The position numbers and the translations under genes were made by a program. Of a stretch of DNA of 64,000 nucleotides, positions 1-18,942 are shown piece by piece. A model generated the notes under the pieces. That model made no database searches, was not told the DNA's origin, and saw only the letters and a program-made list of their open reading frames with translations. The stretch is from an uncultured Erysipelotrichaceae bacterium (lineage in GTDB: Bacteria > Bacillota_I > Bacilli_A > RF39 > UBA660). The DNA lies in assembly GCA_963535465.1 (NCBI GenBank), contig CAUSWF010000002.1, positions 64,606 to 128,605 on the forward strand, in the 5' to 3' direction. Each line of letters begins with the position of its first letter. Within the stretch, counting starts at the first letter, position 1.

Positions 1-1943
1 GGAGAACCTACCTGTCTTACTCTTGGTATTTTATTAGGATCTGGATAAGTAGCACGAGGTCTATTTATAAAGTATTTATAAAATCCTCTATCTCTTGCCC
101 ATGTAAGCATAGATACACGAGTTGCTTCTATATTAGCTTGACAATTATAATACATTAACATTTGCATAGCTGTTTTGTAAGCAACTCTAACATCGTCAGG
201 TCTTGCTAAATAGTAGGCTACATACATTGGTTCTTGATTTCCAAAAGCTCTTTTCTTTATAGTAATACAGAATTTAGAAGGAGATTTAGTAGCTTCAGAT
301 GTTTGATCTTGTCCTATATCAATAGAGTCAATTCCAGCTACATATAAATTTTTCATTTCTTTATAAGAAATTTTATTTCCTTCTTCATCTTCTGATTGTA
401 ATAACCATAATGGTTGCTATATTATATGAACTTCGCCTGTATTAGTTGGAATAAACTAAACATCTGTAATATTATCACACATATCCTATTTTCTTCCATT
501 ATTTGTTTTAAATATAAATTTAAATTCTCCATGTTGTACTTTAGGACCTTGCTTATGTAAACGTATCTAAGCTAACTAATCTGCAAGTAAAACCTTATTA
601 AATTTATTATCTCCTTCAAGGGCAAAGGCTTCTTCAGCAGTAAAACAATACTCAGCACAGTATGTTACTAAAGCTTTAGGATCTTTATATCTGTCTCTAT
701 GTTTTTGATAATGTTCTTTAGCTTTTACTTGGTCAACAACTCCTCTAGAATCTACCATATCAGGTAAATCTAAAGCAGAATAAGATGGAATAAAAAATCC
801 AGTAAATACTTGACTTCCATCATCAGTGTAATTATGTCTATAAGGCAATACAAGATAGGATTCTGGATCATAATATATTGTTTTTAATCCATCCAAGGCC
901 GCACCCGAGTCCCCTCCAGTACCACCTGCTATAAGGATACCCATTTTATTACCTCCAACATCTACTAAAGCTTCTCCTTGAATAAAAGATTTTAGTAAAG
1001 TCGGATTAGATCCAGCTTCTTCAAACATAACAAGTTCCGCACGATCACCTCTTACTTTTGAAGGTTTATCAGCAACAATGCCTTCAATTTGAGACTTCCA
1101 TCCATCTTCTACTTTTTGTCCATTTATTATTTTATAAAAAGAGGCTCTTTTAATATCTGCCTTATCAACAACTTGTCTTAATTTAAAAAATCCTCCATCT
1201 GTTTTATCATTTAGGAAAGTTAAAGCTCCCCATACTTTCTCTAGAGTTTTTTCTAATTTACCAGAATCAAAAGCAGTAATCATAGTAATACTATCTCTAT
1301 AACAAGAGTACTCATTAGCACATACAGATGCTAATATTTCCGAAAAACCTACAGCACGGCTTTTCATCATACATATATTTCTTCTTAATAATTTACATAA
1401 TTCTAAATAATGAAAGAACTCATACTAACATACCATAAACCGTGGAAATATATTTTTACGTGCTGTACCAGCTTTTTCTACTCTAGAATTTTTAAGTTGA
1501 TAGTAATTTAAAAAGAAATAATTACATCCTGTAATAGTATAACCATTAACAGTCATTCCATTACGGCATCTTTTATATTCTTGATTCCAGAAATCTCTGT
1601 ATAATTTAGATCCAAATTGATATTGACAATAATGTCCTGTCTTTTCAAAATTATCTCTTGCTTCTGTAAACCATGAAGGATTAAAATCGAGACCGTGTAT
1701 TGCATCTATTGGTTTATATCCACATATTTCGTAGGATTGTGTTCTATCAAAAAAAGATATAGTCTAACTAATTGGGTAATCCCATTCAAAATTAGTTCTG
1801 ACTATATCTTTCTCTATATCCTAAATAAATTCCTTTTCTTCCTTAGCTTCGGCCTGTTTTGTAGCATCTATAATAGACTAAACCTCATCAGGAAGTTTAA
1901 TTTTTCTAGGACGACCTCTTTTACGTTTTTTAATTTCTTCCAT
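1..1943 (-). CDS. terL: Terminase large subunit, C-terminal end runs off the window start; TAG read as sense
   Basis: ATG at 1943-1941. The frame stays open to base 1 only if nine in-frame TAGs are read through (plus-strand cta at 1878, 1821, 1764, 1425, 576, 567, 486, 456, 417). ORF-track fragment 576..1370 plus the flanks give FLNYYQL, MFEEAGSNP, ILIAGGTGGDSG, AGIDSID and NIEAT, which are TerL ATPase/nuclease-type motifs. Confidence 0.85.
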
Positions 1944-2530
1944 TACATATCTGTTGGTAAGAATCCATCAGTAGCACCTGCTCTAATTGCTGAGGCTTCT
2001 TGTTGCTCTTTTTGAACTTGCTGTTCTAATATTTTTAATTCATCATTTACTTTAGATATCTAAGACATTTCTTTCATAATATCAGAAACTTTATAAATAG
2101 GTTTACCTGTCTAATCATCAACTTCCATAGGATTAACAGTTTCAAAGTAAATAATAAATTTATCAACAGCCATCTAAGCAGCTTTAAGCATACGTATAGT
2201 ACGATTAGATTCTTGTATTTCTTTATATTTTCTACAAGCAGCTCTAAAAGTAGGATCATTCCATTCTTCTTCTGAAAGTCCTGCATCTTTTAAAGCTTCT
2301 TGGTGTCTATCTTGTTCTGTGTAATCTTTATAAAAAGATTCCCAGTCTATAGCTAAGTATATATATGTAAATTCTCGGTAAGCTCTTAAATGTTTCTTAC
2401 CTGTTTTATCTTCAGTGCAAACATTTCTCTTATCATCCATTAAAGCAGCAAATTCTCTAATTAAAAGAATTTGCCCTTTTTCCAATTCTACCTAACCACT
2501 TGCATTATTGTACTGAAAAATATGTAACAT
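1943..2530 (-). CDS. Hypothetical late protein (195 aa), recoded
   Basis: ATG 2530-2528, TAA 1945-1943 overlapping the terL ATG. Four in-frame TAGs (2492, 2174, 2111, 2060). It contains ORF-track piece 2174..2485. Confidence 0.6.
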
Positions 2531-2535
2531 TATAA

Positions 2536-3855
2536 TTATTTATTTAAATGAAGAATGCTTCTAAGTTTAACAAAATCAATATTACCTCCATTAAGACATT
2601 TCTTCATCTTTCCACCTTTTTTATCTTCTCTTACTTCAAACTGTGCTTTAGTTTTAGAAGATTGACTATTAAATTTTTTAATTAATCCTTGAAGTTCTTG
2701 TTCTTCCGCTGGAGTAAGTTTACCTTTAGCTCTTTTAGAAGTAAGTTGATACTGACGTGCATTATCTTGTTTAGTATAAGTAGGAACAACTTTTACATTA
2801 GAATTACCTGTACGCATATTTGAAACTGTAGAAGAAATTGCTTTTTTCTTAGTTTTATCTGCTGGCATTTCCATACCTTCTTCAGCAGTTCTCATTCCAC
2901 GACAAGCAGAGCATATACGACCTCCTGCTTTAAAATAATATTTATAAGTACCTTCAGGACATTCCCCTTTAATTTGTTTAATATAGTTTAATTTAGCACC
3001 AAGCTTTGCCATCTAGGTCTGTTTATTAGCTTCTTCTTGAAGATATTGTTGAAACTATTTCCAAGATTCTTCATTTGGTTGTAAATTATTAGCTTTACAA
3101 AATTCTGCAAAAGCTCTTTTAATTTCTTCGTTTTGGTCTAATTGACCTCCATTCTAATATTTCATACTATCGTTATTATAATCAAGTCTAATTCTACGTC
3201 TATCTCTAGCTCCAATATGCCCTTTAATACCTGTAGCTGCAAGATATTTTTCCCAATCTTCATCTTTACTAACATCTAATCCTCTATTTTTTAATTTAAT
3301 AGCTAAATCATTAATAAATAAATCTTTCCCCGGATTTATTAATGCGTTTCTAAATTGATCTATATTTTGTATACCATTATATCCTCTATCCATTAAAGAT
3401 CCAGATTGATTACGTAATCCTTGTCTTACAATAGCTCTATTTACTTGATTAAGTCTTGGCTATACATTTTTTCCAATTTCTGGTGTATAATTGTACACAT
3501 TAGGAGTAGTATTAAAAGAATGGTTTTCAAATTGTTCAGGAGTAGTTTTATCACCGTATCTAAATGTTTTAGCCATATTTAAAGCATTAGCTGTTTCATT
3601 TCCCCATAAACCATCTTCTTTAATATAACCTACTTCATTTCCATACATAGCATTGTACCATTTCTAAAAAGCAAGGGCATTATCAAAACCATGAGATTCT
3701 ACTCCATTATTATCCCATGTAATATTATTTAAATCTGGATTAGCATTAGCAAAAGCTTGAGCATATCCTAAACCATTATAACGACCTCTTTTAACTATTG
3801 CATTATCTTGTTTATATCTATACTAATCCCACTTTTGTACTGGTTTTTTTATCAT
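2536..3855 (-). CDS. Hypothetical virion/cell-wall-associated protein (439 aa), recoded
   Basis: ATG 3855-3853 to TAA 2538-2536. It joins track ORFs 3460..3648, 3154..3393 and 2536..3012 in one frame through six TAGs (3823, 3664, 3460, 3154, 3055, 3013). DGLWGNETANAL resembles a peptidoglycan-binding repeat. Confidence 0.6.
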
Positions 3856-4076
3856 AGTTTAATTAAATCCTTAGTATTAAAAATTGCTTCCTATAATTTA
3901 TTATCTGTTGAGAACCATCTACATTTAATTCCTCGAAGAATTGGTTCTTTATCAGCATTTAGATGCTTGAATATTGTTGTTTCTTTCTTTATTACCAGCA
4001 TAGTAGGTTTATTAGGAATATCCTATTTAAGCGTTACTATATCTCCAGGCATAAAGTATATTTTATCATTTATCAT
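3852..4076 (-). CDS. Small DUF2158/YodC-like protein (74 aa), recoded
   Basis: ATG 4076-4074, TGA 3854-3852 (ATGA overlap with the next gene). Two in-frame TAGs. GDIVTLK(TAG)D...TMLV...IKCRWF resembles the GDxVxLKSGGPxMTV...CxWF pattern recalled from memory. Confidence 0.45.
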
Positions 4077-4662
4077 TATTATTAAATCTTTCTGTTAGTC
4101 CAGAGTTAAAAATAGCTATAAGACTATGTTCATTAACAAGAACAAAACCTTTACGATAAAATGGTATTATAGTTTCAGATGGTTTACGCCACATTACTAT
4201 ATCACCTACTTTAGTATAAGTGCATTTAGTTCCTACTTCCATAACTTTTCCTACTTTAATAAATGGATCTTCTTCATGCATAGCACCATCTTCTCTACTT
4301 TTATAAATAGGTGCTTTACCTCCAAGATCAACAATTAAACCATCAACTTTTTTAATTCGTTGAAAAGGATTAACTACAAAAGGAGAAATAATTATGCCTT
4401 CGTAAAGAGGTTTCATTTCTAAAGTATCTAGGTTAATGTCTTTACTATAATCTGTTAATTGTTTGTTATAATTATCTAAATTAGATAAATATTCATTTAC
4501 ATCTTCTTTATGCTTATTTTCTTTTTCTATAACAAGATCATCTATTGTTTGATCTTTATTTACTATGAAACTTTTAGAATCTTCTGAACTTACTTTGATT
4601 GCTACTTTTTCTTTATTAGACGGAGTAGTATTAACGTCTCTTCCATTAATTGTTCTTATCAT
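4066..4662 (-). CDS. Hypothetical protein, C-terminal half possibly GroES/Cpn10-like fold
   Basis: Intact ORF-track ORF. KPLYEGIII...GKVMEVG...KVGDIVMW loosely resembles the Cpn10 pattern. Weak. Confidence 0.4.
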   Translation of the reverse strand: MIRTINGRDVNTTPSNKEKVAIKVSSEDSKSFIVNKDQTIDDLVIEKENKHKEDVNEYLSNLDNYNKQLTDYSKDINLDTLEMKPLYEGIIISPFVVNPFQRIKKVDGLIVDLGGKAPIYKSREDGAMHEEDPFIKVGKVMEVGTKCTYTKVGDIVMWRKPSETIIPFYRKGFVLVNEHSLIAIFNSGLTERFNNNDK

Positions 4663-4663
4663 A

Positions 4664-4903
4664 TTACCATTTATTACTAGGACATTTTTCTTCTTTTACA
4701 GAAGTTTTTAAATTGATAAAACATCCACATAGACCACATATTTTTTGATTATCTATTACCTCTAAATATTTACATCTATTACAATACTTTAATCTATTAA
4801 AAGAAAGCTCTTTATTTTTTCCAATAGTATAATTGAATAAACCTTTTATTATATGTTTAATTTTCGTTGGAAAATTCTCCATAATATTTTTTAGCTGCTT
4901 CAT
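4664..4903 (-). CDS. Small Cys-rich (zinc-ribbon-like) protein
   Basis: ORF-track ORF with CNRC...CGLCGC...CPSNKW. Paralogous to 5474..5740. Confidence 0.5.
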   Translation of the reverse strand: MKQLKNIMENFPTKIKHIIKGLFNYTIGKNKELSFNRLKYCNRCKYLEVIDNQKICGLCGCFINLKTSVKEEKCPSNKW

Positions 4904-5480
4904 TCCTAGCTTTAACAGCTTCTTCTAATGTATCATAACGTCCAATATATTTAGTTTTATTATTTAATGTAATTTGGGCAGTCCACTTATTTTTATCTTT
5001 TGAAAAATATACACCTTTATGTCCAGATGTATTATTTTTTGGGACAGTACAATTACATAAATTTTGTTGGTTTGTACAAATTCTTAGATTGCATTTTCTA
5101 TTATCTAACCCATTATGATTGATATGATCTATCAATATTTTTGGATCAGTAATATTTAAAATATACCTATGCAATCTTCTAAATTGTTTATTATTAGAAG
5201 TACAATAATATGTATTTCTTTGCAGATCTGATTTATGCCATCTTATAGCTTTTACTTTTTCTATATCTTCTATATCTATTAAAGCTTTTCCACATATTTC
5301 ATTATCCCTATTTATTAAAAATATTTCAGCATGATCGTCAACTATTTCTATATGGTTTGTTTTATCTTTATACGAATATTTAAAAATTTTTCCGTATCTT
5401 CTTATTTGTGTATAATGTTTAGAACATAATCCATTAGCACAAACTTTTTTACCACATCCTTCAATTTTACATATTACCAT
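4857..5480 (-). CDS. HNH homing endonuclease with C-terminal AP2 DNA-binding domain
   Basis: DHINHNGLDNRKCNLRICTNQQN (HNH) followed by SGHKGVYFSKDKNKWTAQI...GRYDTLEEAVKARNEAAKKYYGEF (AP2). Confidence 0.8.
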   Translation of the reverse strand: MVICKIEGCGKKVCANGLCSKHYTQIRRYGKIFKYSYKDKTNHIEIVDDHAEIFLINRDNEICGKALIDIEDIEKVKAIRWHKSDLQRNTYYCTSNNKQFRRLHRYILNITDPKILIDHINHNGLDNRKCNLRICTNQQNLCNCTVPKNNTSGHKGVYFSKDKNKWTAQITLNNKTKYIGRYDTLEEAVKARNEAAKKYYGEFSNEN

Positions 5481-5740
5481 TGTTCACAAGGGCAAACACT
5501 ATCCCTATTTTTTGTTTTATATTTTAAAACACAGCCGCATCCTTTAAAATAACCATCTTTCTTTTCTAAACTAACATCTTTTGTTTTAGGATTCATATAT
5601 AATTTAGGATTACATATTCCTCCGAACTCATCCTTATATAAAGGACATTTTTTACATATATCTATTCTTATTTTAGATATATCCTTATTAAGACCAAGTA
5701 ATTCATTTACATGACCTTTTATTATATTGCCAACTTCCAT
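5474..5740 (-). CDS. Small Cys-rich (zinc-ribbon-like) protein
   Basis: CKKCPLY...GGIC...GCGCVLKYKTKNRDSVCPCEQW. Paralog of 4664..4903. Confidence 0.5.
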   Translation of the reverse strand: MEVGNIIKGHVNELLGLNKDISKIRIDICKKCPLYKDEFGGICNPKLYMNPKTKDVSLEKKDGYFKGCGCVLKYKTKNRDSVCPCEQW

Positions 5741-5776
5741 AATGTTTGTTTATTATCCTATTTTCTGATGATAATC

Positions 5777-7693
5777 TTAATATTCTATCGGTTTAAGTTT
5801 GGCTAATTTTTCTTGTTTAAAAACAGACTTTTTATAAAATTTTAGCATTGATTCTACTTCTTTCTTTAAATAAGGTAAATGATAAACTGTTTGATTATCA
5901 TTATGATCAAAGTGTACTAATATTAAATCTTTAATAGTATATTCTGGATTAATTTTTTGTAACATCCATGCATAAGTAGATAACTGTAAAGCATAATGCC
6001 AGTAATTGCAATCTTCCAAAGTGTTCAATGGATACTTCATTTTAACAGAACTACGAGTTTTAGTATCAAAGCCACTATGTTGTTTGATTTCTTTATTAGT
6101 ATTATGTGTAATTATACATTTATTAGTAACTAAAAAAGTATGTAAAGGGCTGTCTACTTCTAAACATTGTGTTGGAATAGTTTCTGTAATTTCTACTTTA
6201 TTAATATTTCTAAATGAATTTTTATCTATTTTTGGAAATTCAATTTCTTGATTTCTTATTAAAAAAGGATTTAATCCATTAGTTGAGAAACATACATCCC
6301 AAGCAATAAATTCTTTACCATTACATTTTTTTATTACTTCAAAAACAGTAGATTTTATACCTAATGTTCCTAATAATTTTACAGTACAATCTCTTTGCCA
6401 TTCTTGGCCCGTAGACATTACAAAACGTTTTCTTTTAGGATGATAATAACCATCAGTATCCATTAATCCTCTTAATAAGTCTAATCTTTGATTAAATGAA
6501 GCTGTATAATACTCTTCTGGAATATGTTTATTTTTTAAAAGATTCATTTTATTTAATAAAGTTCTTAATCCATAAACAGTCCTCATTTCAGTATTTTCTC
6601 TATCAGGATTATGTTGGGCATTTTCCCCTATATCAAAGCCACGATGTTTTAGTTCATCCCATAATTTAGATTGACTTGCTTGCGTAATAATACCACAATC
6701 TTTTGAACCATCACCTAACCAAACTCCTAATAAATAAGGATCTATTAGTAAATCTTTAGTTGGAGTATTAATAGGTTTTGGATTTAGTATTTTAGGAATT
6801 GTATAAGAATTTCTAGTATAAGTTTGCATATAATTATAAAGTTCCTTTGTAGTTATTACTCCTTTAGTATAAGGTGTTTTTTTACTTTGATTTTTAAATG
6901 ATACTTCCCAACGGTGATCTTCATCAGCTACTATAGTGTCTCCGTTATCAAAAGTTATTTTGAAGCATGGATTATTATGTATAGATGATTTATGCAAAAT
7001 TCGTGTAGGATTACCGTCTCCATCAAAAATAACATCCCCTTCTTTTACAGCTCCTATAGTAGTCCATCCAGAATTTGTTAATATTTCTGTGTCTAAAGGT
7101 AATCCTTTCCAATCCATGACTGTTATTTCATTACCTTGTTTAACTAATAAATCAATCTGTCCTGCAATTCTTAGCATGTTATCAGGAGAAGTACGAGAAA
7201 TTAAGTATTCAGGATATACTCCATTTTCTAAATCTAACGCAGTTCTTCCTTTATCGCATATAAATTTACCTCCTACACCAAATTTCTTTAGTGATACATT
7301 AGCACCCATCTTATACATACTTTGCTCTAGATCTGAATGTATTTTAGTACCTCTTTCACAAGATTCTCTATTAGTTTTATCCCATTCATCTAAAATACCT
7401 TGTTGTGCTTTATTAAAATCAAGTTCAGTAATATCATACGTACTTAAAAGTTCTTTAGGTATTTTGTGTGTATTCAACAAAGATTTTCTTTCTATTTTCC
7501 AAGCATCTGAGGGAATTAACTTTTCTAATGCCTTATATCCAGACCAAAAATCTTTATCAAAGGGTTGAGCAAACTTTTCTATTAAAGTTGTTACTGAAAT
7601 AAATCTATCATTTGTATCTGTATTCCAGTATACATGGTCATTTTCACTGAATGCAATGCTTCCATTCTGTTTGTCTATTTTCATATTATTCAT
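5777..7693 (-). CDS. PD-(D/E)XK (RecB/Cas4-like) nuclease interrupted by an intein
   Basis: Extein motifs are ERGTKIHSDLE, GQIDLL...VMDWK|..|TNK (D-x-K-T restored on splicing) and YALQLSTYAWML (QxxxY). Residues 197-531 are intein-like. Confidence 0.8.
   Translation of the reverse strand: MNNMKIDKQNGSIAFSENDHVYWNTDTNDRFISVTTLIEKFAQPFDKDFWSGYKALEKLIPSDAWKIERKSLLNTHKIPKELLSTYDITELDFNKAQQGILDEWDKTNRESCERGTKIHSDLEQSMYKMGANVSLKKFGVGGKFICDKGRTALDLENGVYPEYLISRTSPDNMLRIAGQIDLLVKQGNEITVMDWKGLPLDTEILTNSGWTTIGAVKEGDVIFDGDGNPTRILHKSSIHNNPCFKITFDNGDTIVADEDHRWEVSFKNQSKKTPYTKGVITTKELYNYMQTYTRNSYTIPKILNPKPINTPTKDLLIDPYLLGVWLGDGSKDCGIITQASQSKLWDELKHRGFDIGENAQHNPDRENTEMRTVYGLRTLLNKMNLLKNKHIPEEYYTASFNQRLDLLRGLMDTDGYYHPKRKRFVMSTGQEWQRDCTVKLLGTLGIKSTVFEVIKKCNGKEFIAWDVCFSTNGLNPFLIRNQEIEFPKIDKNSFRNINKVEITETIPTQCLEVDSPLHTFLVTNKCIITHNTNKEIKQHSGFDTKTRSSVKMKYPLNTLEDCNYWHYALQLSTYAWMLQKINPEYTIKDLILVHFDHNDNQTVYHLPYLKKEVESMLKFYKKSVFKQEKLAKLKPIEY
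6101..7105 (-). mobile_element. Intein (335 aa) with LAGLIDADG homing-endonuclease domain; class-3-like WCT signature
   Basis: Block A is GLPLDTEILT (Gly, not Cys/Ser, at position 1). Block B is TIVADEDHRW (W two residues after His). LAGLIDADG motifs are LLGVWLGDGS and LLRGLMDTDGYY. Block F is TQCLEVDSPLHTFLV (Cys where Asp is usual). Block G is IITHN followed by Thr+1. Confidence 0.75.
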
Positions 7694-8378
7694 TTACATA
7701 TTTTTTTATATTATTATAATCTAGTATTGCTGCTAACTTAGAAATTTCTGGACCTATAACTACTGGATAATAAGGCATCTTATACTCTTTCTTCTTTTTA
7801 TAAAGTATTATTATTAATCCAATAGGACTATTACTTCCTGCTATAGGATAAAAAGCAGCAGCTCTAGCATTACTTGCTAAAAGTTTATTGTAAAATTTTG
7901 GCATAGAATATTTAATAGAATCTATATTATTTACTCTTAATAGAGAGTAATTATTTATTTTCTATAACTCATCTATATAATAAACATATTCAAGTTCATG
8001 CCATTCTCTTTTTGTTTCTTGCGAATCTATGCCTCTAGTCTTCTCAGTAAGGCAATTTAAATACTAGTAACTAAAACCTTGTAAACTTCTAGTTGAATTA
8101 TGATAACTTAAAAGTATTACATTTGTAGCATCAGGATCTTTATCAAGTATTGCCTAAACACTTCTATCTATTTCTGGAGCCATTTTAAGAGTATACTTTT
8201 CAGCTTCCTACTTATCATTCTCCATAGATTCAGCCCATTGTTTAATGCTGTTTTTGTTTTCAGAAATTATATAATTTCCGAGGCACCATCCTAATAATCC
8301 AATTATAATTACAGTTTTTGTTTGTGTGCCCAAACTATCTAAAAATTCCCAAATCTTTTTTATTAATTTTAATTTCAT
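7686..8378 (-). CDS. Membrane-anchored hypothetical protein (230 aa), recoded
   Basis: ATG 8378-8376. N-terminal TM segment TVIIIGLLGWCLGNYII. Five in-frame TAGs join it to track ORF 7686..7904. Confidence 0.55.
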
Positions 8379-8560
8379 TAAATTTTTAATTAATACTTTT
8401 TATTAAGCTTTTACTTCCTTTCAAATCTTTACGCAAATCTTAATTCTAAATATAATAAATAAACTTACTAAATTTTGAACTAAACAAATTTAATAATATT
8501 TTTACAGTAATCAAATTTAGAGATATAAATTATAACAATTTTTATAAATACGTTTATAAT
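8379..8560. promoter_or_regulatory. Divergent intergenic region between the two recoded late blocks (putative late promoters)
   Basis: 182 nt of AT-rich non-coding sequence between ATG 8378 (minus) and ATG 8561 (plus). No specific promoter motif identified. Confidence 0.35.
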
Positions 8561-9331
8561 ATGGCAGTAAATAATAGTATTTACAATAACAAAAATCCTA
8601 ATATTAAATATAATATTTAGAATTTATTTACTACGGCTAAAATTGCTTCTTTATTAAAGAAAGGAGGTAATGTACATAGAACAGATATATTTCCAGGGGT
8701 TATAGATACTAATGCTAATTTTGATAATATGAGTCCTAGGAAAAAAAGAAAAAAGATTAAAAAACATCAAGATGGAGGAGAAATAGAAGTGGTTGAATAT
8801 AATCCTGTAGTATTATCTTTAAAAAAATTAGATTATCCAGAACTAAATAATATTAATACTAAAACTTTAGATATATCTGGATTATCTTTTGATAAATTTA
8901 CTCCACCTTCTATAAATAATATGCGCGTATAGGAAAATTATCCTATAAATCCAAATATTAGTTTAGAAGATTTATTAAAACAAGAAGGAGTAAATGCAAA
9001 AGTTTCTTCTGGTTATAGAAAGGGAGCAATATCAAAAAATGGACATAAAAGTAATCATAGTCATTTAAATTCTGATGGAACTCCAGGAGCTTATGATATA
9101 GTTCCTAATGATGGTAACTTTGAAAATCTTAGAAAGGAGATATATGGTAATCCACGTATAGTTGCATGGCTTAAAGCTAAAGGTTGGGGTATTTTAGAAG
9201 AAACTACTCCTAATATTATGAGAAAAACTGGAGCTACAGGTAAACATTGGCATTTTGGTCCTGATACTGCAGCCTTAGATATGTCTAGATAGAATGGAAT
9301 TAATTATACTAAATTAGGAGGTTTATTATGA
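8561..9331 (+). CDS. Peptidase M15 (VanY / L-Ala-D-Glu peptidase)-like cell-wall hydrolase, recoded
   Basis: ATG 8561, TGA 9329-9331. Three in-frame TAGs (8618, 8930, 9293). SSGYRKG...SNHSH...GAYDIV...GKHWHF matches the SxHxxGxAxD...HxH zinc-peptidase pattern. Confidence 0.6.
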
Positions 9332-10470
9332 TAGAAACTACAAAATATGATAATATAGATCAGTAGTTTGAATATCCAGATTTACCAAGTATTAATAATT
9401 CTAATAATACTATAATAGCAGATGAGGCTACTGAAAATTATCTTAGGGCTGTTCAAAATGAATATGCTTTAAAGGCTTAGAGAGATAAAGAATTATGGGA
9501 ACAACAATAGAACGTTAAAAATAATTAGCCTAATTAGTAGTATTCATTTACAGATAATAATATACCTCAAATAAGTAGTTCTAATAAACAAGGATCTTAG
9601 AAAGTAAAAGAAATACTTGATAATATGATACATGATCCTACTAAAAAAACTATATTGTTAAAAATTGCAGAAAAAGAATCTAATTTTAAAATAGATGCTA
9701 AAAATGCTAAAAGTTCTGCTAGCGGTTTATTTGGATTTTTAAATTCAACTAAACAAAAATATGGTTATGGTAATACTGCTGAATAGTAGATTTAGGGAGC
9801 ATCTAAATTATATGATGCTCATGCTACTTAGTTATAGTAGTATATAAATAAATATGGAACTAGAGGTAAATCAATAACTTAGTTAATGTATGGTATGTGG
9901 TTTAGACCTACTTCTTTACTTCATTATTTACAAACAGGTCAAGATGATTATAAAGATGCACAAGGAACTAGTTTAGAAAAAATATTTGCAAAAATGGCTA
10001 AAAATGGAGGAATATTAAAAGCATAGGATGGAATAATAATTCCAAAAGCTCCTAATACATTTAGATAGTATGGAATAGATCCTAATAAGTTTGTTAATAT
10101 GTGGAACGGACTTGTTAATAAAGGAATATCTCCACAAGTAGCATTTGATGCTACATGGCAAGCTAATAAAGAAGTTCCTAAAGGATATTATTCATATGGA
10201 AAAAAGAAACCTAATCTCAATAGTTGGGTAGAAGCTGCTTCAGATAGTTTAACCACAGGAGCATATAAAAAAGCAAAGAATGCTTAGAATTTTGATTAGT
10301 ATAGATAGGCTACTTTTAAATATAATAAAAATCCAGAATATACTAATTGGTTAAAAACTAATAGATAGGATGCTGTTAATTTTATAAACAGATATAGACA
10401 ACAAAACGGAATAGTAGGTAAACCTATAGCTTAGCTTATCCCAGTAACTTAGATAATTAATAACGTATGA
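9328..10470 (+). CDS. Lytic transglycosylase (SLT)-domain protein, recoded
   Basis: GGAGG precedes ATG 9328; TGA at 10468-10470. I counted 22 in-frame TAGs, including TAG-TAG doublets. IAEKESNF...SSASGLFGFLNST resembles the SLT catalytic ES...GLMQ region. Confidence 0.6.
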
Positions 10471-10745
10471 TAAAGAATTTTATAAAAAGTATGTTACTAG
10501 CTACTCAAGGATCTATAAGTTCTAAAAGAGTTTGTGGAGTTCTTGGTTGGTTAGTATGTTTAGGTATTTGTATTTACTGTACAGTTGGTTAGATACAAGC
10601 TCCTATACTAGCAGACAGTGTTCTTATAGGTAGCGCAGCATTAATGGGCGTAGATAGTGTTACAGGTATATGGAAAAATAAAAGAGATATAAATATTATA
10701 AAAGAAAATGAAACTAATGTAGAACAAAATAATAGTTTAGTATAA
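10467..10745 (+). CDS. Holin-like small membrane protein (92 aa), recoded
   Basis: ATGA overlap with the upstream gene. Two hydrophobic segments (VCGVLGWLVCLGICIYC, ILADSVLIGSAALMGV). One in-frame TAG, TAA stop. Confidence 0.5.
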
Positions 10746-10750
10746 TAAAT

Positions 10751-13183
10751 ATGACTCAAATAAAATTTGATAAATCTAAAAAATATTATGATAGTAAATT
10801 AAATAAATACTATGGTTAGGGTATTTGGTTTAAGGATACTAATGATGATGGTAAATATAATGAAGGAGAATCTTTAATTCCTATGGGAAATAGAATTAAA
10901 AATTCTAATAATTCTTATGTACAATTAAATTCTGATGGAAGTAGAACTTTATTATATTCTAAAGGTAAATTTACTAATACTAATATTTCAAATGTAGATA
11001 AATAGGCTATATCTAAAGGATTAATATATGGACGCAATGCTTCTTTACAAAATAATAAATATGTAAGATCTAATAATGGCATAAGTAATTGGGATATAGA
11101 TACAGTTAGACAAAAAAATAAAGATGGAAGTTATACAGATATTAATAATAATACATCTTTTATATATAATAAAAATAAATATATTGGAACAGCTGGCAGT
11201 AAAAATGTAATAGATTTATATCATAACGTAGTAAGTAATGATGGAGGTAAAACTTGGTCTAGAAATTCTACAACTCAAAAATCTGTAAGTCCTTTTATTA
11301 CAAGACGCTATGGTACATAGCCTTTAGGTTAGTATTTAAATCCAGATACTAATATTAAAACAAATTATGCTGAAGTTAATTTTGGAGATACTAATGGTTA
11401 GAATCAATATTTAAAAAATAATTATTGGGTATATGATGATGGTAATGGTAATGTTCAAACTATCGGATTTAGGTATAAAGATGGTAAAGATTATGCGTTT
11501 TTATCAGACGATAATAATTTTTTAAATGATAATGTTTCTGGTATTTTAAAATCTAAATAGAGTATAGGTTCATCTAAACTTAAATCTTATAGTGCTGGTT
11601 TTACTCCAGGTATGGAAAAATGGAGAGGAAAAGGTGGATGGTATACAAATGTAGGATAGGATCTCCCCGATATAGTATACGGTGCTAAAGATGGTTATTT
11701 ATATAATAAACAAGGATAGCAAATAGGATTTAATGCAAATGGTACTTATTATTTAAAAAATAATATTATTGCTTCTGAAGAAAAACCTACATTTAAGAAT
11801 ACTTTAGTAAATGGGTGGTCTGGCTTAGTACAAGACTTTAGTAATTTAAGTTCTAGATTTGATCCTTCTAATAATTAGGGTTTCCAAAATAGATTTACTG
11901 GAATATTTGGAGATTTAGGTAGAGGAATACAGCATGCTGCATAGGGTACTGTAGGGGCATTAGCTACTGCTATTATTCCAGATAGTTTGAATGAAACCAT
12001 AGGTAAGTATGGTTAGATTACCGATATAGGAAAAGATTTAAGAAGTATAACTAGTTTATTTGGTAATGGGAAATTTGTTACACCTTGGGATTAGGATAAC
12101 CATGGCCTTGTTGATTACGCAGATATAATTGGCAACAAACAAGGTCTTCAAGATATAAACGATGCATTAAATGGAGCAACTGTTTTAATCGGAACTAAAG
12201 GATTAGGCACAACAAAAGAAGTTTTAAAAGGAACACTGCAGGGAACAAAAGCTATGAGGTTTACTGAAGCTGCTCTTAAAGGAGCAAAAAATACTTCTAA
12301 AAATATATATTCAAATGGAGCATATTATACAGGAAAAGCAGGATTACGTCCAAGTAATATTACTCCTATGATTAATGCTGTTAAACAAGGTTTTAAAAAT
12401 GCACGTACTTATTATGAAGAATCTGCTCCAGTAGTAACAAAACCAACAATAGTTGAGTCTAAACCAGTAACAGCAGGTACAAAATAGTATATACAACCTA
12501 CAATAAAAAAACTTAATCCAAATAAAGGTGCTGAAGTAGTATATAATATGAAATTTAATCCTGTTTAGGAAGCTTAGAATATAATGGCTAAACCTAAATT
12601 TATATTTAAAGAAAATTCTATAGTACATGTTCCTAAAGGATTACCTGTAAAAGTAGAATAGCCTGTACTAACATAGCAACCTGTTGTTAAACCGTCTGTA
12701 CAAAAAATTCCTAAAACTGCACCTAAACAATTAACTTTAGAGTTTGTGGAAGATAAACCTAAATATGTACAACCTATATTAAAACAGCTTAATGATGCTA
12801 AAAAAGCTGAAATTGCAAGTAAAATAGTTCCTATAGATTATGCAAATGTAGCACATACTATAATGTAGTCTAAACCTACTATATAGCTTCCAGAATTTAG
12901 ATTTTCTTCTAAATTTAATCCTGTTTCTGAAGCTAAAGCTAGAACAGTTAGTAATACTTCAAATGTAGGAAATATTCCTAATAAAAATATTAAGTATGTA
13001 GAAAGTCAACCTACAGTTAATAATTCTAAAATACTACAGTGGAAGCAAGCTAAAGAAATTAAAGCAGTACCTAAAACAATGAAACCTAAAAGTAAAAGTA
13101 AAATATTGAAAAAAGTAAATAAAAAATATTTAGGTGGAATTTTAAATAATAAATTTAATAATTGGATAAATGCAAATAACTAA
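10751..13183 (+). CDS. Large virion/tail-associated hypothetical protein (810 aa), recoded
   Basis: One frame is open from ATG 10751 to TAA 13181-13183 with 19 in-frame TAGs. It contains track ORF 12254..12487. C-terminal internal repeat: Y(I/V)QPxxKxLN...KFNPV(TAG/S)EA occurs twice. Confidence 0.55.
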
Positions 13184-13697
13184 TTTTATAAAATATATAT
13201 AGAGTTGGGAAGGAGGTTATGCTAATATACCTCAAGATAGTGGAGGTCCTACTAATAAAGGAATTACCCTAACTACTTTCCGATCTATATTTGGGCAAAA
13301 CAAAACAATAGATGATTTAAAGAAAATGACAGATGAGCAATGGTGGAAAGTATTTAAAACTAAATTTTGGGATAAATACAAAGCAGATAATATTAAAGAT
13401 GAATGGTTAAGATATTTATTAGTAGACTGGTTATGGTGTTCTGGTCAATGGGCTATTACTAAAGTTTAGAAATTACTGGGATTAAATCCAGATGGAATTG
13501 TCGGAGACAGAACTATAACAGCTATTAATAGTAAAAATCCTAAACAATTATTTGATACTATTTGGAAGATGAGAGAAAAATTCCTTCAAGATATTTCTAA
13601 AGGTAAGAATAGTATATTTTTAAAAGGATGGCTTAGACGTCTTAATGGGCTTAAATATGGTTATTTAGTAACTAGTAATAATAAAATATTAAAATGA
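13170..13697 (+). CDS. GH108-family N-acetylmuramidase with PG_binding_3-like C-terminus (endolysin), recoded
   Basis: WEGGYANIPQDSGGPTNKGIT is the GH108 signature, and LLGLNPDGIVGDRT is PG-binding-like. In-frame TAGs at 13200 and 13467. TGA at 13695-13697 overlaps the next ATG. Confidence 0.75.
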
Positions 13698-13924
13698 GTT
13701 TTATAACAAATTTTAAAGAATCCAATAGGTATAAACACTTTTGGTGTGCTATACCTATTGGATTAATTTTTACTATACTTTGTGTTATTGGGTGTGCAGG
13801 AGGTATGGAATTTAAAGATAAACAATATAGTAATTATTGGGATTGGAAAGATTTTGGATTTACTGTATTAGGAGGATTTGTCGGACAGATATTATAGATT
13901 ATATTAATATTAATTTTATTATAA
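13694..13924 (+). CDS. Small membrane protein (76 aa), lysis-cassette partner, recoded
   Basis: Hydrophobic segments WCAIPIGLIFTILCVIGCAGG and GFTVLGGFVGQIL(TAG)IILILILL. TAG at 13895, TAA at 13922. Confidence 0.5.
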
Positions 13925-15273
13925 TGCCAAAACCTTTTGATTTAGATTTACATAAAAGTTATAATGTAAATAATAAAAGTAAAAATTATAAGTCCTTTAC
14001 TGGGGCTAATGGAGAATTATGGTATACTGATAGACCTTTAATTACTTATAATAATAGTAAATTAGCTTATGTAACTAACGGAAGAAATGCTAGATGGGTT
14101 ACTGTTGGAAATGAATTTAATACTTAGCCTTAGATGTTATCTAGAGAACAAGCTGTAAAACGAGATCTTAATAAACCTAGAATACAAGCAGCTAATGATT
14201 TAACTTAGGGTTTAACTGATCTTATTACAGGAGGAATGGCTGGATCATTAAGAGAAGGGGCTTAGAATCTTACTAAAGGTAATTATATTAAGGGTATTTC
14301 ATAGTTAGCTACACCTGCCATGTTTGGATCTGGAATTGCAGGAAATATAGCAAGAGCAGGTGTCGGATCTTATAATTTATTAAATGAAGATAGAGTTAGA
14401 AAAACATATAAATATATTAATAATAAGGAATATGGGAATGCTGCTGTTTCTGGATTAGGAGATATTTTAAATGGAGGTATGGCTATACATGGTGGTACTT
14501 AGTTATTTAAAAACTACAGAATAGTTGAACCTAAATTATTAAGTGCTAATTTAAATAATAAAAATATGCCATATTACTCTTAGTTTGAATAGTAGGAAGC
14601 ATAGCAACATATGATATCTGATATAAAAAGAGGTTATTAGAATTTTAAAGATTGGATGACGAATCCTCATTATTTAGAATCTACTTTAGACAACATGGAA
14701 GAAGCTAAAAGAATGGGTTTAAAATATACACCTACTTATGATAAACCTCATTATAAAGCACTAATGTAGAACGGTATTAAAATTAATTTTAAGAAATAGA
14801 TGCAGGGTAATGGTGCTACTAGTTAGTTTGGTGCATAGGCCGGACATCCTGCTGAAGTTGATTTAAATTTAGGATCACCACAATCATTTTTTAATACTGT
14901 AAGACATGAATCTGGGCATGCTGCTTATCATGGTAATGGGTTAACTCCAGATGAACTTAAATATTTAAGATTTAAAACTCATTAGGCTTTTATAGATAAG
15001 GCTGAGGCTGGTCCTTATGATTTTCATTAGTAGACTGGTGAAGCTGCTATGAACGGTAGAGATTTAGGACATGATTTAGGAATATCTGTAGGACAATCTT
15101 ATCCAGGATATTAGAAAGCTTTAGAAACATTAAATTCAGGACTAGGCAAATCTACAAAAGATGGAATGATTAAATTATTTAAAACAGATGAACAATCTAT
15201 GCCTTATGTATGGAAATTACTTAATGGTACTTTACTAGGAGGAGCTTTAGTAACTAAATTTAATAATAAATGA
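13924..15273 (+). CDS. HExxH zinc-metallopeptidase-motif protein (449 aa), recoded
   Basis: ATG 13924 overlaps the upstream TAA. 19 in-frame TAGs, TGA at 15271-15273. Contains VRHESGHAAYHG. It joins track ORFs 13837..14127 and 14320..14502. Confidence 0.55.
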
Positions 15274-15275
15274 AT

Positions 15276-15313
15276 AAAGGCGAGCATCAATTAAGATGTT
15301 CGCCTTTCTTTTT
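15276..15313. terminator. Intrinsic terminator closing the recoded plus-strand block (possibly bidirectional)
   Basis: aaaggcga (15276-83) pairs with tcgccttt (15300-07), followed by a T-run. It lies 3 nt after the TGA of 13924..15273. Confidence 0.7.
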
Positions 15314-15576
15314 AAATTTAAAATTATGAAAAACTTTATTAATTTCTTTTTCTAGATCTTCTTTTATTTTTCTATTAATTCTATCAGCAATTTCTTGCTA
15401 CCTAATACATATTTTCCAAGAAGATTTTTCATTTTCTATCTGGATCTATTGATAGTTTATTTAACTCATCTTGATAATCTAAAAACCAAGATTCGTCTAA
15501 ACATTTATTATCTGTACATAACTTTCTAAATGTATATAAATTCTTAATTAAAAACTTAGAAAGTTTCTTAAGTATT

Positions 15577-15780
15577 TTAATTTTTAATTTCATCCAATAA
15601 TTTTTGTTTCCAAAATAAATATTCTTTTGAATTTTCTAGTTTATGTAATTTAAAGAATTTCTTTATTCTTTTTATATTCTTTATACTATGATATAGTTTA
15701 TTCTTATAACATTCTGAAATTTCATCATTAGATACATTAAAATACTTACAAAGTTTAATCATTAAGTGGTATACTAACAT
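15577..15780 (-). CDS. Hypothetical protein (67 aa)
   Basis: ORF-track ORF. The ATG begins 2 nt after the 3' end of the upstream suppressor tRNA. Confidence 0.45.
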   Translation of the reverse strand: MLVYHLMIKLCKYFNVSNDEISECYKNKLYHSIKNIKRIKKFFKLHKLENSKEYLFWKQKLLDEIKN

Positions 15781-15782
15781 AG

Positions 15783-15870
15783 TTGCCTCGCTAGGATTCG
15801 AACCCAGATTGACGCCCTCAGAAGGCTACAGATTTAGAGTCTGCCGTAATAACCATTATACTACAAGGCA
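15783..15870 (-). tRNA. Suppressor tRNA, anticodon CUA (reads TAG), 88 nt with long variable arm (type II architecture)
   Basis: Reverse complement: TGCCTTG TA GTATAATGGTTATTAC G GCAGA CTCTAAA TCTGT AGCCTTCTGAGGGCGTCAAT CTGGG TTCGAAT CCTAG CGAGGCA A. It has a 7-bp acceptor stem (U1-A72), a 7-nt loop with C34 U35 A36, and A73. Confidence 0.85.
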
Positions 15871-15876
15871 TTAAAG

Positions 15877-15948
15877 TTATCCCACTAGGATTCGAACCCA
15901 GACTAAGAGGGTTAGAGCCTCCTGTGCTAGCCGTTACACCATAGGACA
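15877..15948 (-). tRNA. Suppressor tRNA, anticodon CUA (reads TAG), 72 nt, tRNA-Gln-like
   Basis: Reverse complement: TGTCCTA TG GTGTAACGGCTAGCAC A GGAGG CTCTAAC CCTCT TAGT CTGGG TTCGAAT CCTAG TGGGATA A. U1-A72 is present, and the D arm is nearly identical to the phage tRNA-Gln(UUG) at 31788..31858. Confidence 0.85.
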
Positions 15949-15954
15949 ATAAAT

Positions 15955-15969
15955 GTGGGAGCCGCCCAC
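15955..15969 (-). promoter_or_regulatory. GC-rich hairpin 6 nt upstream of the suppressor tRNA pair (terminator/attenuator or processing signal)
   Basis: gtggg-agccg-cccac. On the transcribed (minus) strand the hairpin is followed by AUUUAUU and then tRNA nucleotide 1. Confidence 0.4.
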
Positions 15970-16134
15970 TTAATAAAATAAAAGATTTATTGGCTAAATA
16001 ATCTTAATTATTAAAATACTCAATCACCATCCTTTATATTCTCCTTAAGTATTTTAATTTCTTCACTTAGTATTGCTAAAGCATGTCTTGCTTGAAATAA
16101 TCTATTTTCTAATTCAGAAAATATTTTATCTTTA

Positions 16135-16503
16135 TTAATCATTTAAATACGTTACTAAGCGTTTTATTTCTGCACGTACTGTGTTATGTACTACAGTTTT
16201 AAACATATCAAGTACTTCGCTTGCAGTATTGTTTAAATTCCACTCATTGAGGGTTTTACCTGTTTGAGTTTCTACTTGCTCACAAGCTTTATTGAAAACA
16301 TCATCATCTAAATTATTTAAATAATCCTTAAGTTCTTTAGCAGATTTAAGTTCACTTTCATCACCAACTAACTTAATTGATATTGTTCCGTCTTCCTTAT
16401 TAATTTCATCTACTTTATAAGTAATGCCATCAATAATATAATTTTCCTCTTCTATACTATTTTCGGCAATACTATTAATTAAATTTTGTAATACTTCTTG
16501 CAT
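16135..16503 (-). CDS. Acidic hypothetical protein
   Basis: ORF-track ORF, no motif recognised. Confidence 0.5.
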   Translation of the reverse strand: MQEVLQNLINSIAENSIEEENYIIDGITYKVDEINKEDGTISIKLVGDESELKSAKELKDYLNNLDDDVFNKACEQVETQTGKTLNEWNLNNTASEVLDMFKTVVHNTVRAEIKRLVTYLND

Positions 16504-18307: not shown

Positions 18308-18636
18308 ATGCTAAAGTAAATATATTATTTTTATTTTCAAATTATATTTTTAATTTTAACATTTTTTTATTTAATCTTTCCCCCCCCATTTTAAAAATGT
18401 AGTTCGTTTTAAATTTATTATAATATCGTATAAACGAGAGTATAATTAAAAAATTTATAAGTTATATGAGAGAGAGTCCACTCCCTTCGGTCGCCCCCCG
18501 CCTATCGTCGTGGGAAAATAGTCTACATTTATAAACTCCTATATGAATTTAGGGGATTGAACATTAAAAGATTGTTTAATCCAGGCTAAGTACGCATGCC
18601 TTAAATTGCGCACACCTCAAAAAGGATTAAGACTTA

Positions 18637-18942
18637 ATGAATTTCATTAATCTTACTCCACACGCTATTGTGCTGAACGATGGTGCAGTGTACCAGCCTT
18701 CTGGTACTATAGCACGCGTTTCGGCTCAGTTCAGCGAGGTTGTAGATGGATTCTGCACACAGACCTTCGGGGATGTTGTAGGACTGCCTGCACCTCAGGA
18801 TGGTGTGTACTACATCGTATCTGCTATGGTCTTTGCAGCCACAGACAGAGTTGATGTAGTTGCACCAGCCACTGGGCATCCTGCGTGTGTAAGGAATGAC
18901 AAAGGTCAGATAGTATCTGTACCTTGCTTCCTTAGACACTAA
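18637..18942 (+). CDS. Hypothetical protein (101 aa), G+C-richer island
   Basis: ORF-track ORF starting MNFINLTPHAIVLNDG.... The antisense ORF 18634..18975 is judged a shadow. Confidence 0.55.
   Translation: MNFINLTPHAIVLNDGAVYQPSGTIARVSAQFSEVVDGFCTQTFGDVVGLPAPQDGVYYIVSAMVFAATDRVDVVAPATGHPACVRNDKGQIVSVPCFLRH

Follow-up and report, generated by a model that had tools for sequence, protein, structure and literature searches.

The first 15 kb of the stretch of DNA considered here, a window of 64,000 nucleotides (nt) from contig CAUSWF010000002.1 of an uncultured Erysipelotrichaceae bacterium (assembly GCA_963535465.1, positions 64,606 to 128,605), is written in a genetic code different from that of the rest. 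In this block, which holds late genes for packaging, virion, and lysis functions, TAG encodes glutamine; elsewhere in the window it is a rare stop codon. The recoding is very probably served by two phage suppressor tRNAs encoded just beyond the block. One of these belongs to a widespread and probably undescribed class of tRNAs that present a second anticodon-like loop in a hairpin of the variable arm. Comparison with other sequences suggests, provisionally as regards the family, that the window is part of a large crAss-like phage with two genetic codes, related to the Crassvirales and similar to the Zeta group. Positions are those of the window throughout, and the coordinates of the main features are collected in Table 1.

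TAG is a sense codon in the late block

Coding density was compared over 4-kb bins, counting stop-to-stop open reading frames (ORFs) of at least 150 codons and reading the sequence in three ways: by translation table 11, with TAG as a sense codon, and with TGA as a sense codon. Table 11 covers fractions of 0.33, 0.79, 0.00, and 0.00 of the first four bins. With TAG as sense, the same bins are covered to 1.00, 0.89, 0.92, and 0.78, and with TGA as sense there is no gain. In the remaining twelve bins, from 16 kb on, the readings by table 11 and with TAG as sense are practically identical. An initial annotation, made by a model from the letters of the window alone, had proposed this very division, with read-through of TAG needed at positions 1-15273 and the rest in the standard code.

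The ten late genes within positions 1-15273 contain 89 in-frame TAG codons in 3,673 codons (24.2 per 1000) and not a single in-frame TAA or TGA, and all nine of the genes that are complete are closed by TAA or TGA. When TAG is read through, the fragments seen under table 11 merge, just as had been claimed, into tightly tiled genes joined through ATGA or TAATG overlaps (the overlaps run from 1 to 14 bases). The earlier counts of TAG for five of the genes (9 in TerL, 22 in the SLT-like gene, 19 in the 810-aa gene, 19 in the HExxH gene, and 2 in the GH108 endolysin) were exact, and a manual total of about 90 compares with the 89 found. TAG-TAG doublets do occur, five of them in frame in the block, but the example that had been placed at 9783-9788 lies at 9784-9789. 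The right boundary is as sharp as it had appeared, a terminator-like hairpin standing three bases past the last recoded gene. To the left, the block runs past the edge of the window; in the close relatives, which are IMG/VR contigs of 102-176 kb, the genes 3' of TerL (putative portal and head genes) carry 1-30 TAG codons each. Gene calling by table 11 loses the terminase, the endolysin, and the virion genes of this 15-kb block.

TAG in the late block means glutamine

TAG encodes glutamine in the late block, as had been suggested by analogy to code 15. Protein databases at first sight offer ready proof, as the closest of 120 database homologues of TerL show Q at all nine TAG positions. These database proteins (P0001-P0168; loci L001 and L002), however, cannot be translated from their own DNA under table 11 and were called with code 15. 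The Q opposite TAG is therefore a convention, and an argument built on it from such databases is circular. A tabulation of the residue opposite TAG at the level of proteins, a check that the initial annotation had recommended, was dropped for this reason in favor of codon-level alignments with relatives (L001-L008), in which glutamine proved to be the commonest partner.

In codon alignments of TerL, relatives of 94-98% protein identity show swaps between CAA or CAG and TAG, in both directions, at more than a dozen columns, and two TAG codons at invariant positions face CAA in relatives of 52-58% identity. Over all late genes, the non-TAG partners of TAG are glutamine codons in 64 of 127 pairs, followed by lysine (18) and glutamate (14). 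Substitution profiles drawn from the same DNA alignments provide a likelihood test that is, owing to this origin, independent of any convention of translation. The log likelihoods were -256 for glutamine, -464 for lysine, and -484 for glutamate, putting glutamine ahead by more than 200 log units, and tyrosine, leucine, and serine fell outside the top five amino acids. In the GH108 endolysin, the TAG at codon 100, within ITKV(TAG)KLLGL, had been noted to fall where such domains usually have glutamine, and all 47 homologues indeed have glutamine there, including "lysozyme family protein" sequences of NCBI and JGI origin at about 40% identity. The second TAG of this gene lies at a position where homologues vary among L, K, R, and Q. 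None of the TAG positions compared lay opposite a protein terminus or an alignment gap.

TAG makes up 43% of the block's glutamine codons (89 TAG versus 106 CAA and 13 CAG). Glutamine codons and TAG together account for 5.7% of late codons, as against 2.9% for glutamine in early genes, and alignments with relatives contain swaps of TAG with AAA, GAA, and AAT as well. The gain of TAG at lysine, glutamate, and asparagine positions of relatives, taken with the raised share of glutamine and TAG, suggests that TAG is favored and not merely tolerated. The late genes seem to have actively accumulated it, the SLT-like and HExxH genes more than any others.

TAG as a guarded stop outside the block

Outside the block, table 11 leaves 71 ORFs (12,232 codons) unbroken, and they end in TAA (58), TGA (9), or TAG (4). 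Behind each of the four TAG stops there is an in-frame TAA or TGA, at a distance of 0, 5, 11, or 20 codons (Table 1). TAG is a genuine stop in this region, used sparingly and with a safety net, a nuance to be added to the earlier claim that the rest of the window follows the standard code. That all four have a near back-up fits a codon that is a stop early and leaky late.

A conserved TAG-free island within the block

The late block is interrupted by five consecutive genes in which no TAG had been seen, and closer analysis agrees: positions 4066-7693 contain none in 1,131 codons, where about 27 would be expected at the rate of the late genes (Poisson P about 1e-12). An ORF at 4664-4945 has a TAG, at codon 7, only if an upstream TTG is taken as its start.

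The absence of TAG is shared by relatives for a core of three genes: the PD-(D/E)XK-type nuclease, the 88-aa Cys-rich ORF, and the GroES-like gene. Homologues of the intein-interrupted nuclease are 300-303 aa long, lack the intein, and have no TAG in all five relatives compared (L001, L002, L004, L006, and L008). Those of the GroES-like gene are TAG-free in L002 and L008 and have a single TAG in the extended ORF calls (231-233 aa) of L001, L004, and L006, which probably lies upstream of the true start. Genes neighboring this core in relatives carry 3-30 TAG codons each. Since the core is TAG-free also in these five relatives, which range from 52 to 98% in TerL identity, it is kept so by selection and is not a recent import. 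By contrast with the core, the HNH-AP2 gene and the intein are, by the same comparison, insertions specific to the window, absent from close relatives. If the gene that houses the intein must be TAG-free, then the intein within it obeys the same rule.

The simplest reading of the island would be that its proteins must be made while UAG still terminates; a co-chaperonin, for example, might have to be ready before the capsid proteins. The conservation of the island, like the back-up stops behind the rare early TAG stops, goes beyond the published picture of recoding.

Two suppressor tRNAs beside the block

ARAGORN finds two tandem tRNA(CUA) genes at 15782-15948 on the minus strand, five bases apart and about 500 bases beyond the right edge of the block. 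Their Rfam scores (Table 1) may be compared with a gathering score of 29 bits for tRNA. Overall identity to the other tRNAs of the window does not discriminate, and so Gln-type identity features were used instead. Both tRNAs have U1-A72, G10, and A73, and the phage's own tRNA-Gln(UUG) shares U1-A72 and A73. The start of the D arm of tRNA A, GGUGUAA, is common to tRNA-Gln(UUG), and tRNA B has the variant AGUAUAAUGG. At the next two pairs of the acceptor stem, tRNA B has G2-C71 and C3-G70, and tRNA A has G2-U71 and U3-A70. For comparison, the glutamine identity set of Escherichia coli comprises a weak 1-72 pair, G10, G-C pairs at 2-71 and 3-70, and G73. The reading of TAG as glutamine suggests that both tRNA(CUA) would be charged with glutamine, presumably by the host's glutaminyl-tRNA synthetase (GlnRS). 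A tRNA A family is present in about 47 IMG/VR contigs. The long variable arm of tRNA B might suggest a type II tRNA for leucine, serine, or tyrosine, and this assignment was considered and rejected: the molecule has U1-A72 and the D arm GUAUAAUGGUUAUUAC, not G1-C72 with a type II D arm.

Upstream of the two tRNA genes there are two genes in the standard code and a hairpin resembling a terminator, and an ORF starts one base past the annotated 3' end of tRNA B. No HDV-like (hepatitis delta virus-like) ribozyme was matched in 15300-16200 at E values up to 10, using Rfam 15, which may not include the theta subfamily. Among all ORFs of at least 300 aa that were scanned in the window, none matched a release factor, GlnRS, or other code-change protein. 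One gene, encoding 489 aa at 16708-18180 (minus strand), was considered as a synthetase, release factor, or CCA enzyme and set aside, having no sequence match in Pfam, PHROGs, NCBIfam, or PDB; all other ORFs of at least 300 aa have different functions. This 489-aa gene shares its strand with the suppressor tRNAs and is found two genes upstream of them, and inspection by eye finds motifs resembling Walker A and DExH (GITGCGGT and DEYH).

An anticodon-like hairpin in the variable arm

The variable region of tRNA B, 20 nt in length, contains a hairpin whose loop displays CUG, a glutamine anticodon (Table 1). IMG/VR was scanned for similar molecules with a pattern in which the T loop and the anticodon loop with CUA were fixed and the variable region was free. 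Of the 61 distinct tRNA(CUA) found with a length of 82 nt or more, 47 have a Gln-type body. At the tip of the variable-arm hairpin, 46 of these 47 have YUGA, and the remaining one has CUGC. The loops in canonical register are CUCUGAA (17), UUCUGAG (12), CUUUGAA (4), and minor variants, and they present CUG and UUG as their only anticodons. The motif is absent from the 13-14 tRNA(CUA) suppressors with a classical type II body. The stem of the hairpin varies by compensatory changes (C-G, G-C, U-A, A-U), and RNAalifold, given 34 sequences, predicts the hairpin unaided. Pairing holds in 86% of cells versus 54% in shuffles (0 of 500 shuffles reach the observed value), and the covariation score is 0.69 versus 0.18, with slid partners reaching at most 0.20.

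An analogous scan of IMG/VR for opal suppressors found 74 distinct long tRNA(UCA). Seventeen of these resemble tRNA-Sec, and none of the 17 has a corresponding motif. Of the 57 others, 52 carry U-CCA-A, the tryptophan anticodon loop, in a covarying hairpin of the variable arm (GUCCAAA in 23, CUCCAAA in 17, and others). Of the 57, 38 begin with A, and many of these 38 have A1-U72 with G73, an acceptor end that we take to be Trp-type. It may be noted that long opal-suppressor tRNA(UCA) of phages labeled tRNA-SeC by ARAGORN are mostly not tRNA-Sec (L435-L545, for example L475, L511, and L469; also L203, L208, L213, L268, and L303).

Controls set these two classes apart. A scan of metagenomes for further opal suppressors returned genuine tRNA-Sec only, and UCCAA occurs in none of these 109 distinct bacterial tRNA-Sec(UCA). 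Among approximately 130 ordinary leucine, serine, and tyrosine tRNAs from the same loci, U[CU]UGA occurs in 1 and UCCAA in 0-1. There are no cross-combinations: CCA loops do not occur together with the anticodon CUA, nor YUG loops with UCA. By Fisher tests, P is about 5e-30 (Gln class) and 1e-37 (Trp class). A scan of 185,579 representative prokaryote genomes for tRNA(CUA) showed the design, among the matches listed (119 stretches), in three contigs of metagenome-assembled genomes (MAGs), and the other long tRNA(CUA) among those matches are classical type II molecules. The three contigs (L564, L622, and L661, from bins labeled Bacillota and Mollicutes among others) carry pseudo-anticodon tRNA(CUA) identical or nearly identical to viral ones and are probably phage sequence binned into MAGs. 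Some relatives (L013 at 11175-11265; L117, L135, L151, and L162) encode a different molecule, a 91-nt tRNA-Trp whose anticodon is the normal CCA, whose D arm is type II-like, and whose long variable arm ends in a GAAA loop. Where the true anticodon is cognate anyway, a long arm can thus occur with no pseudo-anticodon in it.

As a pattern of sequence, this five-arm class with a pseudo-anticodon is firmly established. It is widespread, with about 46 Gln-type and 52 Trp-type distinct sequences in IMG/VR alone, and it is probably undescribed: a search of full-text literature, with subscription literature outside it, found no description of natural tRNAs of this design.

What might such a hairpin do? 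Both GlnRS and tryptophanyl-tRNA synthetase (TrpRS) use the anticodon as a major identity element, as known from the E. coli enzymes, and a suppressor must give up one of the three bases recognized, G36 in the case of amber suppressors for glutamine and C34 in the case of opal suppressors for tryptophan. It is quite plausible, and the simplest reading, that the pseudo-anticodon serves as a synthetase determinant, CUG or UUG being presented to GlnRS and CCA to TrpRS, with the true CUA or UCA left to read the stop codon. The CUG loop of tRNA B would then compensate for the change of G36 to A, which would weaken recognition by GlnRS. In the canonical complex the variable arm falls short of the anticodon pocket, so some other geometry would be called for. 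Perhaps the molecule folds differently during charging, with the hairpin in the place of the anticodon arm, or perhaps the hairpin acts as a tether that raises the local concentration of enzyme, or a second enzyme molecule is bound.

It is also possible, if somewhat less plausible, that the loop is not a determinant for GlnRS at all. It could be a relic, the former anticodon arm of a tRNA-Gln to which a new arm with CUA was added, or it could have another binding partner, for instance a modification enzyme, some protein of the phage, or a nuclease for which it acts as a decoy. In the complex of E. coli GlnRS with its tRNA, the variable loop points away from the enzyme, at a great distance from the anticodon-binding domain. 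An arm of three base pairs cannot fill the anticodon pocket in that mode of binding, and tRNA A is widespread yet has no such hairpin. A relic, however, would decay, whereas YUG-A is fixed in a loop whose surrounding hairpin, like the acceptor and anticodon stems, varies with compensation. A generic protein site would not follow the amino acid's identity, but the loop admits the two glutamine anticodons and no others, and 52 of 57 opal suppressors have the tryptophan loop at the same place, without cross-combination. Moreover, a synthetic pseudo-anticodon arm improved the charging of amber suppressors when an extra anticodon-binding domain was placed on the synthetase (PMC7590224).

How suppressors that decode dozens of stop codons per gene are charged efficiently is an open point in the literature on recoded phages. 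A pseudo-anticodon arm matching the amino acid inserted (glutamine with CUA, tryptophan with UCA) offers a concrete hypothesis that mutation can test. It also provides a natural template for engineering efficient suppressor tRNAs, the design being known otherwise from one synthetic study.

Timing of the recoding and alternative explanations

The recoding probably acts as a temporal translational lock on late and lytic functions. Early in infection, release factor 1 (RF1) of the host would stop at UAG, and late mRNAs would yield truncated peptides. The suppressor tRNAs would then accumulate, charged with glutamine by host GlnRS, and would outcompete RF1, and at that point terminase, virion proteins, and lysins would be made. 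The timing is suggested by gene content, and the role of host GlnRS and the contest with RF1 are likewise inferred. To the published view of such a lock, the conserved island and the backed-up TAG stops would add detail.

Several observations weigh against the proposal. The start of the island's nuclease gene is overlapped by 8 bases by the end of the recoded gene at 7686-8378, on the same strand, and no terminator-like site was found in 3700-8700, which makes separate early transcription of the island conjectural. Both suppressor tRNAs have A73 in place of G73, and tRNA A also departs at 2-71 and 3-70 from the E. coli set, which may not be that of the host. Finally, a scan with a sigma-70 model, which does not cover Bacteroidota or phage promoters, found no more sites than expected by chance and none assignable to the tRNAs.

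Simpler accounts should also be considered. If the fragmented ORFs were pseudogenes or the result of errors in sequencing or assembly, there would be no recoding to explain, but the chance of this is practically negligible. Fragmentation under table 11 is all that speaks for it; against it, the in-frame stops are of one kind only, TAG occurs in the same genes, and often at the same codons, of independent assemblies from different samples, and matching suppressor tRNAs stand beside the block. Very improbable, too, is that TAG is ambiguous or specifies something other than glutamine, with tRNA B inserting tyrosine, leucine, or serine. The bacterial tRNAs for these amino acids do have long variable arms, as does tRNA B, whose anticodon stem-loop (GCAGA-CUCUAAA-UCUGU) resembles that of E. 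coli tRNA-Tyr, and the alignments contain a few pairs of TAG with TAT. Yet the likelihood test separates glutamine from every other amino acid, not just from these three, and tRNA B has U1-A72 with the Gln-type D arm GUAUAAUGG rather than the G1-C72 and GAGYGG of type II suppressors found in the same scans.

A more serious contender, though still unlikely, is that TAG is read as glutamine throughout infection, because the tRNAs are expressed at once or because the host itself reads TAG in this way. The scarcity of TAG in early genes would then reflect a bias toward efficient codons, or history. The tRNA genes do follow standard-code genes on the same strand and could be early products, and there are phages of the Zeta group that keep suppressor tRNAs without recoding, which suggests roles unrelated to timing (PMC12386605). 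However, the intact ORFs outside the block with their backed-up TAG stops, and an island within the block that has remained TAG-free across divergent relatives, are most easily explained if these genes are translated while TAG still terminates. In addition, the standard code is reported for the bacteria that crAss-like phages infect (PMC7886860; preprint 10.1101/2021.08.26.457843).

Comparison with known systems

As a phenomenon, late-gene recoding of TAG to glutamine has already been published. Reassignment of TAG restricted to late genes is stated explicitly for large crAss-like phages by Yutin et al. (2021, PMC7886860), a model involving late and lysis genes was put forward by Borges et al. 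(2021, preprint 10.1101/2021.08.26.457843), and proteomic evidence that TAG is read as Q in crAss-like phages was provided by Peters et al. (2022, PMC9523058). The window has in common with crAss-like phages using code 15, especially those of the Zeta group, a crAss-like TerL, the confinement of TAG to packaging, structural, and lysis genes, with lysis-associated genes among those most heavily recoded and replication genes in the standard code, a tRNA(CUA), and inteins and homing endonucleases. In the recoding itself there is no essential difference. Papers on these phages do not emphasize the conserved TAG-free island, the two distinct tandem suppressor tRNAs, or the anticodon-like variable arm.

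In Jade phages, where TGA is recoded, a "code change module" consisting of a suppressor tRNA, TrpRS, and RF1 lies upstream of the lysis cassette (Borges et al., 10.1101/2021.08.26.457843). The suppressor tRNAs of the window are similarly placed in a standard-code context directly beside recoded lysis genes. Unlike the Jade module, they are accompanied by no synthetase or release factor found among the window's ORFs of at least 300 aa, and the codon concerned is TAG, not TGA. The supE suppressor of E. coli (glnV44) resembles the tRNAs described here in its tRNA-Gln-type body, its CUA anticodon, and the insertion of glutamine at UAG, presumed for the latter. It arose by point mutation from a cellular tRNA and suppresses weakly, whereas the window has two dedicated phage genes, with A73, and one of them has an extra hairpin.

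The nearest parallel to that hairpin is artificial. Mukai (2020, PMC7590224, section 2.6) describes synthetic amber suppressors in which the variable arm bears a "pseudo-anticodon", built on allo-tRNA scaffolds for histidyl-tRNA synthetase with an extra anticodon-binding domain fused. In both cases a tRNA with the CUA anticodon has a variable arm shaped as a cognate anticodon arm, meant in the synthetic case to recruit the anticodon-binding domain of the synthetase. The design seen here differs in being natural, phage-borne, and suited to glutamine (CUG/UUG) and tryptophan (CCA), and its use by an unmodified host enzyme is hypothetical. Another accessory RNA feature tied to suppressor tRNA genes of recoded gut phages is the theta (HDV-like) ribozyme that flanks them (Kienbeck et al., 2024, PMC10879173), of which there is no match near the tRNAs of the window. 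Classical type II tRNAs (Leu, Ser, Tyr, and Sec) share with tRNA B a long variable region that forms a hairpin. They differ from it in that tRNA B combines U1-A72 with a Gln-type D arm and the glutamine loop motif is nearly absent from ordinary type II tRNAs of the same loci. The tryptophan motif does not occur in tRNA-Sec, whether viral (0 of 17) or metagenomic (0 of 109).

Phage affiliation and other features of the window

The initial annotation had compared the recoding to that of crAss-like and Lak phages, and the analogy holds. TerL matches phrog_6681 (E 1.3e-64). By tblastn it also matches many crAss-like TerL genes with an identity of 28-29% and, at 44-50%, two phage records from the human gut that are unannotated. 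Positions 1-15300, compared by megablast with 50,697 phage records, gave one match of 60 bases only, and no annotated close relative was found. Zeta crAss-like phages have genomes of 145-192 kb and many introns and inteins (Yutin et al., 2021, PMC7886860). Within its 64 kb the window includes an intein, an HNH endonuclease, approximately 12 tRNA genes, and a transfer-messenger RNA (tmRNA); signature structural genes such as those for the MCP, the portal, and IHF fall beyond its limits. The intein, the homing endonuclease, and the size of the relatives are consistent with the large Zeta crAss-like phages of that paper. The window is AT-rich (28% G+C), and its standard-code part encodes an SF2 helicase, a DnaB-like helicase, a primase, two exonucleases, and NrdD, as well as about ten ordinary tRNAs and the tmRNA.

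Table 1. Features of the window, with strand and distinguishing characteristics
Feature	Coordinates	Strand	Remarks
TerL	3-1943	-	9 TAG; 3' end cut by window edge; matches phrog_6681 and crAss-like TerL
195-aa late gene	1943-2530	-	4 TAG; phrog_16390; one-base overlap with TerL start; kept beside TerL in relatives
439-aa late gene	2536-3855	-	6 TAG; homologues in L001, L004, L006 with 5-6 TAG
GroES-like 198-aa gene	4066-4662	-	TAG-free; phrog_3188 (co-chaperonin GroES), E 2.5e-5
HNH-AP2 homing-endonuclease-like gene	4857-5480	-	TAG-free; no counterpart in L001, L004, L006
Cys-rich 88-aa ORF	5474-5740	-	TAG-free; weak DUF6171 match; homologues in L002, L008 TAG-free
PD-(D/E)XK-type nuclease, intein-interrupted	5777-7693	-	TAG-free; weak Pfam matches to PDDEXK_1 and LAGLIDADG_3
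Intein, LAGLIDADG, 335 residues	6101-7105	-	TAG-free; nuclease residues 197-531, by pairwise alignment to 303-aa L004 homologue
230-aa late gene	7686-8378	-	4 TAG; N-terminal transmembrane segment; homologues with 3-10 TAG
256-aa late gene	8561-9331	+	3 TAG; opens plus-strand late/lysis operon; kept in L001, L004, L006
SLT/transglycosylase-like 380-aa gene	9328-10470	+	22 TAG (5.8% of codons); three TAG-TAG doublets
92-aa membrane protein, holin-like candidate	10467-10745	+	1 TAG; hydrophobic segments; no family match
810-aa late gene	10751-13183	+	19 TAG; homologues with 24-30 TAG
GH108 endolysin	13170-13697	+	2 TAG; Pfam Glyco_hydro_108 E 4.9e-21, PG_binding_3 E 1.4e-11
HExxH (HESGH) 449-aa gene, last recoded	13924-15273	+	19 TAG (4.2% of codons); no family match
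Terminator-like hairpin	15276-15307	+	13 pairs and T run; marks right boundary of block
tRNA B, 89 nt	15782-15870	-	anticodon CUA (15835-15837); Rfam tRNA 57.7 bits; Gln-type acceptor and D arm; long variable arm
Variable-arm hairpin of tRNA B, GCC-UUCUGAG-GGC	15814-15826	-	3-bp stem, 7-nt loop: U33-like, CUG (15819-15821), A37-like
tRNA A, 73 nt	15876-15948	-	anticodon CUA; Rfam tRNA 54.1 bits; 5-nt variable loop; U1-A72, A73
Early/middle gene	28767-29540	+	TAG stop; back-up TAA 5 codons downstream
Phage tRNA-Gln(UUG)	31788-31859	+	reference for Gln-type features; U1-A72, A73, D arm GGUGUAAUGG
Early/middle gene	42041-42403	+	TAG stop directly followed by TAA (tandem)
Early/middle gene	42512-42847	+	TAG stop; next TAA/TGA 20 codons downstream
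Exonuclease-like gene (phrog_284)	53649-55193	+	TAG stop; back-up stop 11 codons downstream

Fourteen proteins of the block were compared with Pfam, mostly without a match, GH108 alone scoring above the curated cut-off. The matches of the HNH-AP2 gene to AP2 (E 1.9e-7) and HNH_3 (E 2.2e-4) fall under theirs. For the SLT-like gene there are weak PHROG matches to transglycosylase and baseplate-hub proteins (E about 3e-6), and its homologue in L001 has a weak Pfam match to SLT. For the HExxH gene, ATG 13924 is a likelier start than TTG 13837. The intein begins with glycine (codon GGA) rather than cysteine, serine, or alanine, and ends in THN followed by threonine; it may splice in a non-canonical fashion or be inactive.

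The tmRNA lies at 35955-36276 on the plus strand (Rfam RF00023, 72.8 bits), and its tag peptide, AKVIPMNSFAVRIAA, is closed by TAA TGA. Once amber suppression is on, ribosomes that pass UAG stops and reach the ends of mRNAs could be rescued by a phage tmRNA. Positions 18600-21000 have a G+C fraction of 0.36-0.37, versus 0.25-0.30 elsewhere, and contain ORFs without a match in Pfam or PHROGs. Repeats like those of diversity-generating retroelements were sought in this G+C-rich stretch (18-22 kb) and not found. A 33-codon ORF within it, at 19800-19901, closes with TAG. At 25268-25353, on the plus strand, there is an 86-nt tRNA-like sequence (Rfam, 42 bits), missed by ARAGORN, with an anticodon loop resembling that for GCU and an aberrant T arm.

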